From the sequence record MF044457: 64,000 nt of DNA. One strand, 5' to 3'. The number at the start of each line of letters is the position of its first letter. Within the stretch, counting starts at the first letter, position 1. This DNA is from Escherichia phage ST0. The notes below the pieces were generated by a model that saw only the letters and a program-made list of their open reading frames with translations, searched no databases and had not been told where the DNA came from. Positions 32,484-35,486 of this stretch are shown here, in pieces. The position numbers and the translations under genes were made by a program.

Positions 32484-32747
32484 ATGAAATTTAAATTTTT
32501 CTACGCAAAACATAAAGTAACAGGCGAATTTGTTTCAATGTACAACACTGCAGATGACGAAGGGATGATTTATACCCATTTGGGTCTATCTCATTGGGAC
32601 TCAGACGTGCCTTATATGTCATCTGAAGCCGAAATAACTCGTCTGGTTAATGGACATATGAACGACCATTTTAGTGTTATTCTTTCTAAAGACCTTAAAG
32701 AGGTTATCAACAAAGGATATATGGAACTCGCGGAAGTTGAGATATGA
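32484..32747 (+). CDS. hypothetical protein
   Basis: ORF track 87 aa; RBS AGAGGA. Confidence 0.45.
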   Translation: MKFKFFYAKHKVTGEFVSMYNTADDEGMIYTHLGLSHWDSDVPYMSSEAEITRLVNGHMNDHFSVILSKDLKEVINKGYMELAEVEI

Positions 32748-32939
32748 GCTCTAAAATGTGGATCGGAATATGGTTGCTTAGTATCCCTATGATTTGTATA
32801 GTATTTTCAATTGTATTGAGGTACTTATGAAAAATGCACTTATTATTGTACTAAGAACAATTTGTGATACGGGTTTTTACATCGCATGTTCGTTCACTGG
32901 ATCATGGTTGGCTTTAACATATTTTAATGTAATTTAATT

Positions 32940-32997: not shown

Positions 32998-33198
32998 ATG
33001 GCTAAGCTTTTTAAAGATGTTGAAATTGGTGAAAAATTTGTTCTGAATAATGGTCAGCAGCTTATTCGTGTAGCTTCTATCGCCGGACAAACTCATAACT
33101 GTATCGCCCCAACGTGTTGGACTCGATTCTTTATTGAAGATGACACTGAATGTTTAACTGTTGAAGAGCTTTTTGAACGTTCTGATATAGCCGAATAA
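32998..33198 (+). CDS. hypothetical small protein
   Basis: ORF track 66 aa; RBS GAGGAA. Confidence 0.45.
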   Translation: MAKLFKDVEIGEKFVLNNGQQLIRVASIAGQTHNCIAPTCWTRFFIEDDTECLTVEELFERSDIAE

Positions 33199-33200
33199 AA

Positions 33201-33230
33201 TTGTACAAACTCTTGAGAGCAGAGTATAAT
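33201..33230 (+). promoter_or_regulatory. early promoter with -10 inside a GAGAGC/GCTCTC inverted repeat
   Basis: TTGTAC, about 18 bp, TATAAT. Confidence 0.55.
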
Positions 33231-33274
33231 GCTCTCATGGATTACAAAAACATTAATCAATTGAGGAAATTAGC

Positions 33275-33721
33275 ATGTCCAAATATTTAACTCGTAAAGA
33301 CCTTCTGGCAGTTGGCGGTGAAGTTGTTGCAGTAGTTCGTAATGGCGAATACGGTTCTGAAGTTTCTAAAGAGTTTCGTTCTCGTGAAGGTTTTTACTTC
33401 TTTGTTAAAGGTTCATCTGACTGGCGTCAAGTTGCAGCACGATTCTTTGTAGGACGTCAACGTTCTAAACAAGGGTTGGATGCAATTCTTTCTCACATTC
33501 GTCAAGGCCGTTCGCAACTAGCCCGTACTATGGGCACTAACAATATTGAATATGATGTAATCTTTGTTGCAGCTAAGAACATGAAACCCCTGACTACTGG
33601 TTATGGTAAAGGACAATTGGCTCTGGCATTCACTCGCAATCATACATCAGAATATCAAACACTCACTGAAATGAACCGTCTTCTGGCAGATAATTTCAAA
33701 TTCGTTCTGCAGAGTTACTAA
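33275..33721 (+). CDS. ndd: Ndd nucleoid disruption protein
   Basis: 148 aa; QRSKQG...[34 protein letters not shown] and C-terminal ADNFKFVLQ match remembered T4 Ndd. Confidence 0.8.
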
Positions 33722-33728
33722 TTTATAC

Positions 33729-33760
33729 GGGCCTATTAAGTTAGGCCTTTAATTTATTTT
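33729..33760 (+). terminator. hairpin plus T-rich tract after ndd
   Basis: GGCCT-attaagtt-AGGCC followed by TTTAATTTATTTTT. Confidence 0.5.
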
Positions 33761-34064
33761 TGAGGTAATTAAAATGGTAGCATGGATTATTGCATTGCTG
33801 TGTTGGTCGTTTTTATTCGTTAACACTTTAGTTACAGGCGAAACAACAGTATTTCAACAGGCTGTGTCACAAGGTACCTTAGCGGTCTTAGCTCTTCTTA
33901 ACGTATTAAAAGGCGAGCAATGATTAAGAAAATCTTAGCAGGAGCCTTCGGGCTCTTGTTTTTGCTTACGGTTCTGTACTACGGTGTGATGTTTGGGCTA
34001 ATCCAAGTAGTGCTTTTCATTTCAGATGTTATAATGGTTATTCGTTCATTAATATGGTGAAAAT

Positions 34065-35390
34065 ATGCAATTGAATTCTCGTAATCTAAAAAGTATTATT
34101 GATAACGAAGCCTTAGCATATGCGATGTACACCGTTGAAAACCGTGCAATCCCAAACATGATTGATGGATTTAAGCCGGTTCAACGTTTTGTGGTTCATC
34201 GTGCGTTAGATTTGGCTCGTGGTAATAAAGAAAAATTTCATAAACTTGCGTCAATTGCAGGAGGTGTTGCAGATTTAGGTTATCATCATGGCGAATCTTC
34301 TGCACAAGATGCAGGTGCATTGATGGCTAACACATGGAACAACAACTATCCGTTGTTAGATGGCCAAGGCAACTTTGGTTCTAGAACAGTCCAAAAAGCT
34401 GCAGCATCTCGTTATATTTTTGCTCGTGTAAGTAAAAATTTCTATAACGTATATAAAGATACTGAATATGCTCCAGCTCATGAAGATAAAGAACACATTC
34501 CGCCAAAATTCTATCTTCCTATTATTCCGACAGTTCTTTTGAATGGCGTCTCCGGTATTGCAACCGGTTACGCAACAAATATTCTGCCTCATAGTTTTAA
34601 ATCAGTCAAAAAGGCTGTATTACAAGCTCTTCAAGGTAAAAATGTCACTAAGCCAAAAGTTGAATTCCCGGAATTCCGTGGTGAAGTACATGAAGTTGAT
34701 GGGCGTTATGAGATTCACGGAACATATAAGTTCACATCTCGCACTCAAATGCAGATAACTGAAATCCCATATAAATTCGACCGTGAAACGTATGTGAGTA
34801 AGGTTCTTGACCCGTTGGAAGACAAAGGTCTAATCTCATGGGAAGATGATTGTGGTGAACACGGCTTTGGGTTTAAGGTGAAGTTCCGTAAAGAGTACTC
34901 GCTTCCTGATGATGAAGAGCTACGTCATGAAAAAATCATGAAAGATTTTAGTCTCATCGAACGTCGTTCACAAAACATCACAGTGATTAATGAAAAGGGT
35001 AAATTAGCAGTCTACGATAACGTAGTGGACTTAATCAAAGATTTTGTTGAAGTCCGTAAGACTTACGTTCAGAAACGTATTGACAACAAAATCCTTGAAT
35101 CTGAAAAAGCGTTTAAACTTGCTTTTGCTAAGGCACACTTCATCAAAAAAGTTATTACAGGTGAAATTGTGATTCAGGGCAAGACTCGTAAAGCTTTGAC
35201 TGAAGAGCTAGCACAAATCGAAATGTATAAAGAACATGTCGATAAACTGGTAGGTCTTAACATCTTCCATATCACTTCCGACGAAGCACGTAAACTGGCA
35301 GAAGAAGCTAAAGCTAAGAAAGAAGAAAATGAGTATTGGAAGTCTACCGATGTTGTGACAGAGTACACTAAAGACTTGGAGGCACTTTGA
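34065..35390 (+). CDS. 52: DNA topoisomerase II medium subunit gp52
   Basis: 441 aa; MQLNSRNLKSIIDNEALAYAMYTVENRAIPNMIDGFKPVQR... matches the GyrA-like N-terminus of T4 gp52. Confidence 0.95.
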   Translation: MQLNSRNLKSIIDNEALAYAMYTVENRAIPNMIDGFKPVQRFVVHRALDLARGNKEKFHKLASIAGGVADLGYHHGESSAQDAGALMANTWNNNYPLLDGQGNFGSRTVQKAAASRYIFARVSKNFYNVYKDTEYAPAHEDKEHIPPKFYLPIIPTVLLNGVSGIATGYATNILPHSFKSVKKAVLQALQGKNVTKPKVEFPEFRGEVHEVDGRYEIHGTYKFTSRTQMQITEIPYKFDRETYVSKVLDPLEDKGLISWEDDCGEHGFGFKVKFRKEYSLPDDEELRHEKIMKDFSLIERRSQNITVINEKGKLAVYDNVVDLIKDFVEVRKTYVQKRIDNKILESEKAFKLAFAKAHFIKKVITGEIVIQGKTRKALTEELAQIEMYKEHVDKLVGLNIFHITSDEARKLAEEAKAKKEENEYWKSTDVVTEYTKDLEAL

Positions 35391-35466
35391 GTGCCCTAGC
35401 CTTAGGATTTCTCGGTGCAATAGCTGCACTAGTGATTTGGCTGTATTGGTTGGACAAACATGATTA

Positions 35467-35486
35467 GGGAGCTTCGGCTCCCTTTT
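35467..35486 (+). terminator. UUCG-tetraloop terminator after gene 52
   Basis: GGGAGC-TTCG-GCTCCC followed by TTTT. Confidence 0.75.

Follow-up and report, generated by a model that had tools for sequence, protein, structure and literature searches.

Orthologues of the T4 genes ac and 52.1 in the interval between ndd and gene 52 of a Mosigvirus

Introduction

What is encoded between ndd and gene 52 of Escherichia phage ST0, and to which genes of phage T4 do the short open reading frames of this interval correspond? The stretch of DNA that was analysed here (64,000 nt from sequence record MF044457; hereafter, the window) belongs to a Mosigvirus, the genus of the RB69-like T-even phages. A sequence-only reading of the window had proposed that two small hydrophobic ORFs had been missed at positions 33774-34056, and that they may be the counterparts of the T4 genes ac and stp. 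Both ORFs indeed exist on the + strand, and their translations exactly match those proposed. It was also right to regard them as small membrane-peptide genes between ndd and gene 52. The choice of T4 counterparts had been made from ac and stp only. However, the ndd-52 interval of T4 contains three small genes, which are stp (26 aa), ac (51 aa) and 52.1 (46 aa), and the last of these had been overlooked. As outlined below, the two ORFs of the window, here called ORF1 and ORF2, are very probably genuine early genes and the orthologues of ac and 52.1, respectively, in a string of the order ndd, ac, 52.1 and gene 52.

Organisation of the ndd-52 interval

The genes of the interval are arranged on the + strand in the order ndd, ORF1, ORF2 and gene 52. 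The ndd gene (33275-33721, +) codes for the nucleoid disruption protein of 148 aa (phrog_1102, E 2.5e-56) and bears the same name in the closest records. Gene 52 (34065-35390, +) encodes the medium subunit of topoisomerase II with 441 aa (phrog_551, E 4e-217), on which the related records agree. ORF1 (33774-33923, +) extends from the ATG at 33774 to the TGA stop at 33921-33923 and specifies 49 aa, in line with the start and the length that had been proposed. For ORF2 (33920-34060, +) small corrections are required: the gene starts with the ATG at 33920 instead of 33921 and encodes 46 rather than about 45 aa. Its last sense codon occupies positions 34055-34057 and is followed by the TGA stop at 34058-34060, so that the previously given end at 34056 falls inside the last codon and has to be moved to 34057, or to 34060 if the stop is included. 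The 901 bases around ORF1 and ORF2 show 100% identity with the Escherichia phages 308Ecol101PP and 348Ecol098PP, and 98-99% identity with HX01, JS09, APCEc01 and further members of the genus Mosigvirus.

A Shine-Dalgarno motif (GAGGT; 33762-33766, +) could be read from the sequence 7-8 nt 5' of the ATG of ORF1. The stop codon of ORF1 and the start codon of ORF2 share the bases ATGA, and the stop codon of ORF2 is separated by 4 nt from the ATG of gene 52. All three features are unchanged among six Mosigvirus sequences. The spacing suggests that ORF1, ORF2 and gene 52 form a translationally coupled string, and for the pair ORF1-ORF2 it is the overlap of stop and start that suggests the coupling. 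Between ndd and ORF1 no convincing promoter was detected, and the nearest good sigma-70-like sites are located 5' of ndd (33202-33230) and farther upstream. The number of promoter-like sites in the region (12) is not above the expectation for shuffled sequence (10.1).

Short hydrophobic ORFs also occur in the neighbourhood of the interval. Upstream of ndd, an ORF of 28 aa (32744-32830, +; phrog_8851, 'outer membrane protein') is followed by an ORF of 36 aa (32827-32937, +; phrog_18561), and both are counterparts of the ndd.x cluster of predicted membrane peptides in T4. On the other side of gene 52, a hydrophobic ORF of 26 aa (MSALALGFLGAIAALVIWLYWLDKHD; 35387-35467, +) has a TTG start codon that overlaps the stop codon of gene 52 and a GGAGG motif 4 nt upstream. 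It corresponds to gp206 of HX01, and its site is that of T4 motA.1. A PHROG search with this ORF returned nothing significant (best E 0.073). Gene 52 thus has a gene for a tiny membrane peptide on either side.

Assignment of ORF1 to the Ac family

Sequence comparisons identify ORF1 as an RB69-type orthologue of T4 Ac. ORF1 matches phrog_2501 with residues 1-48 (E 2.9e-22), to which T4 Ac belongs as well (E 2.2e-25). ORF1 and RB69 Ac show 100% identity over 48 residues, and in the RB69 record this orthologue bears the label "ac, Ac acridine resistance protein" (RB69p267). The earlier assignment of ORF1 to ac is thus borne out by the family match, the alignment with T4 Ac and the annotation of RB69. 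Moreover, the location of ORF1 between ndd and 52.1 on the early strand is the one expected for ac. The TAA stop codon of RB69 ac reads CAA in the window and in HX01, and therefore the Ac peptide of the window is one residue longer than that of RB69 and ends at the TGA overlapping the ATG of ORF2. A Pfam match was obtained neither for ORF1 nor for T4 Ac with a Pfam set that did not contain PF26944; for close homologues of ORF1, a match to PF26944 has been precomputed.

T4 Ac (51 aa; phrog_2501 / PF26944) and ORF1 have the PHROG, the position, the size class and the hydrophobic two-helix build in common. They also share the core W...T...SV(F/I)xQAxxQG, including a glycine that has been linked to resistance. 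In an alignment of 28 Ac sequences, the residues W11, T18, V26, Q29 and Q33 (window numbering) are invariant; the core of the family reads SV(F/I)xQAxxQG, of which VFxQAxxQG is present in both ORF1 and T4 Ac. The glycine G34 of ORF1 is kept and aligns with G38 of T4 Ac, and the exchange G38R in the T4 peptide is reported to cause acriflavine resistance (bioRxiv 10.1101/2025.06.30.662393). However, ORF1 has diverged considerably from T4 Ac, to which it is only 37% identical (13/35 residues in BLASTP, E 2e-7), and the turn between the helices consists of TGET in ORF1 and of IDAS in T4 Ac.

The GRAVY value of ORF1, for which a Kyte-Doolittle profile was also taken, is 1.11. An AF2 model of ORF1 (pLDDT 79) predicts two helices, formed by residues 2-21 and 24-45 and separated by a break at G22-E23, and the same layout of two hydrophobic helices has been described for T4 Ac (bioRxiv 10.1101/2025.06.30.662393). 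W11 and T18 share one face of helix 1 (i/i+7), while V26, Q29 and Q33 are located on one face of helix 2 (i/i+3/i+7). The one-sided distribution of the invariant residues fits a specific intramembrane contact surface of Ac, and it does not discriminate between a face for binding a partner and an oligomer interface.

A profile search for Ac yielded 30 protein clusters. The named clusters comprise either proteins of T-even phages or phage sequence that has been deposited under bacterial names. Three homologues (P0020, P0023 and P0026) are filed under Shigella sonnei, Escherichia coli and Enterococcus faecalis (partial). The homologues under bacterial names are most likely not cellular, but derive from contamination or from phage sequence that is contained in the assemblies of bacteria.

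Possible mode of action of the RB69-type Ac peptide

The acridine-sensitivity phenotype of Ac has been shown in T4 and T2 only (bioRxiv 10.1101/2025.06.30.662393), and our literature search for acriflavine or acridine tests on a Mosigvirus or RB69-like phage retrieved no paper. Recently, it has been proposed that T4 Ac blocks the AcrAB-TolC efflux pump (bioRxiv 10.1101/2025.06.30.662393). The expression of Ac renders E. coli more sensitive to acriflavine and to ampicillin, from which the authors infer that efflux is impaired; the proposal rests on these expression phenotypes and on structure prediction (bioRxiv 10.1101/2025.06.30.662393). A paper published in PNAS in 2026 restates the efflux block by Ac as an assumption (PMC13250531). 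ORF1 specifies a peptide of ~5 kDa with two hydrophobic helices joined at G22-E23, which would enter the inner membrane of the host. By homology with T4, the RB69-type Ac may cause the infected cell to accumulate acridines. If the T4 proposal also applies to the window phage, Ac would raise the intracellular acridine level, probably by binding and blocking AcrAB-TolC, and consequently the loss of Ac would give rise to an acridine-resistant phage, as in T4.

The orthology of Ac would also stand if the peptide acted in a different manner, namely by raising the inward permeability, for example by oligomerising into a glutamine-lined channel or by perturbing the envelope, instead of blocking efflux. 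This alternative, which corresponds to the older uptake model and which we regard as rather unlikely, agrees with the early energy-dependent membrane modification that raises the uptake of acriflavine by infected cells (Silver 1964, 1967, as cited in bioRxiv 10.1101/2025.06.30.662393). Moreover, the stripe formed by the invariant residues Q29 and Q33 in helix 2 might equally well belong to the lining of a pore or to a binding face, and Ac has no similarity to AcrZ. However, the expression of Ac also sensitised the bacteria to ampicillin, which was read by the authors as impaired efflux (bioRxiv 10.1101/2025.06.30.662393). Furthermore, a hairpin of 49 aa that has no charged pore residues would be a weak candidate for a channel.

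AcrZ of E. coli is a membrane peptide of 49 aa that binds to AcrB. It is of similar size and contains a membrane helix, and the analogy to the phage peptides is a functional one only. If the efflux model is true, both AcrZ and Ac are small peptides acting on AcrB, but AcrZ is a single helix modulating the pump, whereas Ac is the proposed inhibitor of the pump. BLASTP of ORF1 and ORF2 against AcrZ gave no alignment. The likeness that can be seen by eye between 'GVMFGLIQVVLFIS' of 52.1 and 'GLIYGLGEVFNIFS' of AcrZ was rejected as a hint of an AcrZ-like peptide, as it reflects hydrophobic composition only. When the 52.1 alignment was used as a profile against the PDB sequences, no match with an E value up to 10 was obtained, and a fold search of the AF2 models of ORF1 and ORF2 against the PDB gave no matches, which is to be expected for bare helices.

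Assignment of ORF2 to the 52.1 family

The similarity to known proteins identifies ORF2 as the orthologue of T4 gp52.1, a member of the DUF7396 family, and not as a counterpart of stp. ORF2 shares 72% identity with T4 gp52.1 along the full length (BLASTP, E 4e-18) and matches the Pfam family DUF7396 (PF24129) with 79.3 bits at a cut-off of 27, thereby spanning all 46 positions of the profile. It also matches phrog_3595 (E 1.7e-22), and its RB69 orthologue, RB69p266, is annotated as "gp52.1 conserved hypothetical predicted membrane protein". The 52.1 peptides consist of a variable N-terminal half, in which a hydrophobic anchor follows the residues MIKK, and a C-terminal half that hardly varies (YYGVMFGLIQVVLFISDVIM..SL.W). 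ORF2 carries the C-terminal YYG...VLFISD...W block of DUF7396 and falls into the size class of 45-46 aa. ORF2 is located directly 5' of gene 52, as is 52.1 in the majority of the related loci with this gene. T4 gp52.1 (46 aa; phrog_3595) thus resembles ORF2 in its length, in its nearly identical C-terminal half and in its site 5' of gene 52. The two peptides differ in the N-terminal hydrophobic segment, which is AGAFGLLFLLTV in ORF2 and GYSLALAALLVA in T4 gp52.1.

The GRAVY value of ORF2 (1.84) is higher than that of ORF1. In the AF2 model of ORF2 (pLDDT 97), residues 2-45 are predicted to form one helix of 44 residues. Since such a helix is too long for one membrane span, a hairpin with its turn at the YYG motif is just as plausible. 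When 1.84 billion representatives were searched exhaustively with an HMM, no more than nine clusters of 52.1 (at 50% identity) were retrieved. All nine are 52.1-like and belong to the same type of phage, two of them having N-terminal extensions, and the search uncovered no distant or cellular 52.1 family.

A further difference from T4 is that the N-terminal segment of the Mosigvirus 52.1 encodes an RNA hairpin with a UUCG tetraloop. In the coding sequence of ORF2, this hairpin (33937-33960, +; GGAGCC-UUCG-GGCUCU) is followed by a U-rich run (UUGUUUUUGCUU), which together give a terminator-like match. The minimum free energy amounts to -16.1 kcal/mol (z = -2.3). Six Mosigviruses have kept the stem, and the loop of RB69 is UUAG. 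The hairpin could act on the transcript upstream of gene 52, either by attenuating or by stabilising it.

Possible functions of 52.1

A literature search for the function of gp52.1 or DUF7396 found nothing. A viable T4 deletion is listed as gp52.1-rIIB (PMC9712115, Table 1), and this deletion is the only indication we found that 52.1 is dispensable. Gene 52 is present without 52.1 in RB49, in the Aeromonas phage 31, in the Serratia phage Muldoon and in a T4-like phage of Acinetobacter. Because related phages possess gene 52 without 52.1, we lean towards the view that 52.1 is an effector acting at the inner membrane of the host, rather than an accessory factor of the topoisomerase. It is our guess that the target of this effector is conserved in the Enterobacteriaceae.

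The location of 52.1 invites a different explanation, according to which the peptide is a membrane tether or an assembly factor of the T4-type topoisomerase. This would explain why 52.1 is always found directly 5' of gene 52 with a spacing that resembles translational coupling. Indeed, 52.1 is separated by 4-6 nt from gene 52 in most of the loci with 52.1 (in the loci L005, L012, L015, L016, L022, L023, L024 and L025, the gene 52 match starts about 50-70 nt farther on), and everything upstream of it varies. T4 gp39 and gp52 have been reported to be membrane-associated in the older T4 literature, which would also suit a tether. However, the phages mentioned above (RB49, Aeromonas 31, Muldoon and the Acinetobacter phage) have clear gene 52 orthologues and manage without 52.1, and the T4 deletion listed as gp52.1-rIIB is viable (PMC9712115). 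Moreover, the fixed site is explained equally well if 52.1 marks the edge of a cassette that is prone to recombination. We therefore consider a role of 52.1 in tethering or assembling the topoisomerase improbable, and an effector of the host membrane remains our preferred guess.

Absence of stp

The sequence-only reading had assigned ORF2 to stp, and this part of the proposal does not hold. T4 Stp (PF08133) has only its genomic neighbourhood in common with the two ORFs, as it is encoded between ndd and ac in T4. The T4 peptide is hydrophilic and comprises 26 aa, whereas ORF1 and ORF2 specify hydrophobic peptides of 49 and 46 aa, respectively, that do not resemble Stp in sequence. Neither ORF1 nor ORF2 matched the Stp family PF08133, which was recognised by T4 Stp itself with an E value of 2e-21. 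The idea that ORF1 is ac and ORF2 is stp, i.e. the gene for the activator of the anticodon nuclease PrrC and inhibitor of EcoprrI, has practically nothing left to recommend it: the position between ndd and ac in T4 is roughly right, but a peptide of 46 aa with a GRAVY value of 1.84 contrasts with the short hydrophilic Stp, its Pfam match is PF24129 rather than PF08133, its identity with T4 52.1 reaches 72%, a tblastn search with T4 Stp over the whole 64 kb window gave nothing significant (best E 0.26), and a real stp gene lies upstream of ac while ORF2 lies downstream of it.

Thus, stp is absent from the window phage. In stp-bearing phages, the gene is located directly after ndd and upstream of ac. 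In the window, this site is occupied by a spacer of 52 nt, which contains no ORF and only a hairpin (33729-33760, +; GGGCCTA-TTAAGT-TAGGCC) with a T-rich tail that gives a terminator-like match. Among Mosigviruses, the stem of the hairpin is kept and the loop is fully exchanged (TTAAGT vs GCTTAA). The record of PhAPEC2 labels the hairpin as a terminator, and its folding energy is unexceptional (z = -1.1). It is likely to be a weak intrinsic terminator or a hairpin affecting the stability of the RNA. By tblastn, stp was found in 614 phage records, which are overwhelmingly Tequatrovirus-like, and it is missing from the Mosigvirus loci that were examined. Peptides that are ~78-79% identical to T4 Stp are encoded by Veterinaerplatzvirus T145P1 (OZ035767.1, 42166-42237) and by the Escherichia phage LHE71 (OP455115.1). 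These genomes of 45-50 kb are far too small for T4-like phages, which suggests that stp has spread outside the T-even phages.

Evidence for coding

The length of the two ORFs alone is not beyond chance. At the GC content of 37.7%, a stretch of 46-49 codons is open by chance with a probability of ~0.03-0.04, and many spurious ORFs of the size of ORF1 and ORF2 are present on both strands of the region. It is rather the conservation of the frames and of the proteins across genera, together with the family matches, the Shine-Dalgarno motif, the ATGA overlap and the tight spacing to gene 52, that argues for ORF1 and ORF2 being real. The ndd-52 interval was extracted from about 30 loci of IMG/VR and of annotated phage records. 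The 52.1 frame is open over 45-46 codons in Mosig-, Tequatro-, Gapriver-, Jiaoda-, Kanagawa-, Moon- and Marfavirus as well as in IME281-/JS98-like loci, and Ac homologues of 47-52 codons were found in many of those loci, but not in all of them. Taken together, the frames are open at 45-52 codons over at least eight phage genera. Neither a lack of frame conservation nor a lack of similarity to ac or stp was thus observed, as the frames are conserved and ORF1 resembles ac.

Nei-Gojobori estimates of dN/dS were obtained by comparing the window with other genera. For both genes, synonymous change across genera is at or near saturation, with dN values of 0.2-0.8. For 52.1, dN is 0.20-0.42 and dN/dS is 0.06-0.3 for most pairs, and for Ac the values are 0.40-0.78 and 0.27-0.63, respectively. 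Within the genus, dN/dS is noisy because only 1-6 substitutions are available. The cross-genus estimates indicate that purifying selection acts on both ORF1 and ORF2. The notion of two chance frames in a regulatory spacer, whose hairpins would terminate or attenuate transcription upstream of gene 52, can virtually be discarded: frames of such lengths can be open by chance at this GC content and two terminator-like hairpins do lie in the interval, one of them inside ORF2, but the proteins are conserved between genera despite saturated synonymous sites, frame and length are kept in about 30 loci, the matches to curated families are strong, a Shine-Dalgarno motif and a stop/start overlap are present, and ac of T4 has a genetic phenotype.

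An Rfam search of positions 33000-35000 (E up to 1) found no RNA family. NCBIfam and PADLOC gave nothing meaningful, and a literature search for ribosome profiling of small T4 proteins yielded nothing useful.

A variable cassette between ndd and 52.1

In the about 30 loci, the stretch from ndd to 52.1 is a variable cassette of genes for small hydrophobic peptides. Its members are stp, the RB69-type and the T4-type Ac, phrog_5941 (57 aa), phrog_9347 (53 aa) and a peptide of 43-44 aa. When the Ac alignment was compared by hhalign with the phrog_9347-type, the phrog_5941-type and the 52.1 alignments, the probabilities were 1% or less and no kinship was detectable. A common origin of the small peptides of the interval was for this reason dropped, being undetectable by hhalign.

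The Shigella phage pSs-1 (L022, NC_025829.1) carries the genes for an RB69-type Ac (1183-1338) and a T4-type Ac (1349-1507) in tandem between stp and 52.1. The phages RB32 and RB33 possess an Ac of the RB69-like type with about 70% identity. The presence of both types in the Tequatrovirus pSs-1 and of the RB69-like type in RB32 and RB33 implies that ac subtypes move between genera. In the IME281-like loci L005 and L013, a shortened second copy of 52.1 (LGYSVALSSLLVTLYYGVIPITNM; 1212-1286) is located upstream of the intact gene. This copy resembles a scar that was left in the cassette by a recombination or duplication event.

One might speculate that the ndd-52 interval is a swap-in cassette, which is anchored by 52.1 and whose peptides each disable a different machine of the host inner membrane, such as RND pumps or membrane-bound defence sensors. 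We rate this scenario as doubtful.

Annotation of the two genes and outlook

The two genes are already known, as each of them falls into a family that has been described and both have been annotated for the reference genome of the genus, which makes the finding an ordinary one. The RefSeq record of RB69 contains both ac (RB69p267) and gp52.1 (RB69p266), and both genes are also annotated in HX01. The view that they had been missed therefore applies to some records, from which one of the genes is omitted, and reflects patchy annotation rather than new genes. In two GenBank records that are 100% identical to the window (OR062945.1 and OR062947.1), ORF1 is called a 'hypothetical protein' and ORF2 is unannotated, and the RefSeq record of PhAPEC2 (NC_024794.1) omits ORF1/ac. 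According to the feature lists, roughly 10/30 among the matches listed have a single CDS between ndd and gene 52. In practical terms, the assignment of both genes is thus a matter of annotation hygiene, since many GenBank records of Mosigvirus members omit one of the genes or call Ac "hypothetical".

What remains mildly interesting is that the interval varies in the manner of a cassette and that two types of Ac occur together. With the RB69-type Ac, nature provides a diverged version of the peptide that has been proposed to inhibit AcrAB-TolC, and comparing it with the Ac of T4 would probe both the efflux model and the key residues at little cost. If the interval were indeed a swap-in cassette, the targets of the RB69-type Ac and of 52.1 would differ from the target of T4 Ac, and the locus would be a hotspot of the arms race between phage and host rather than a collection of dispensable leftovers.
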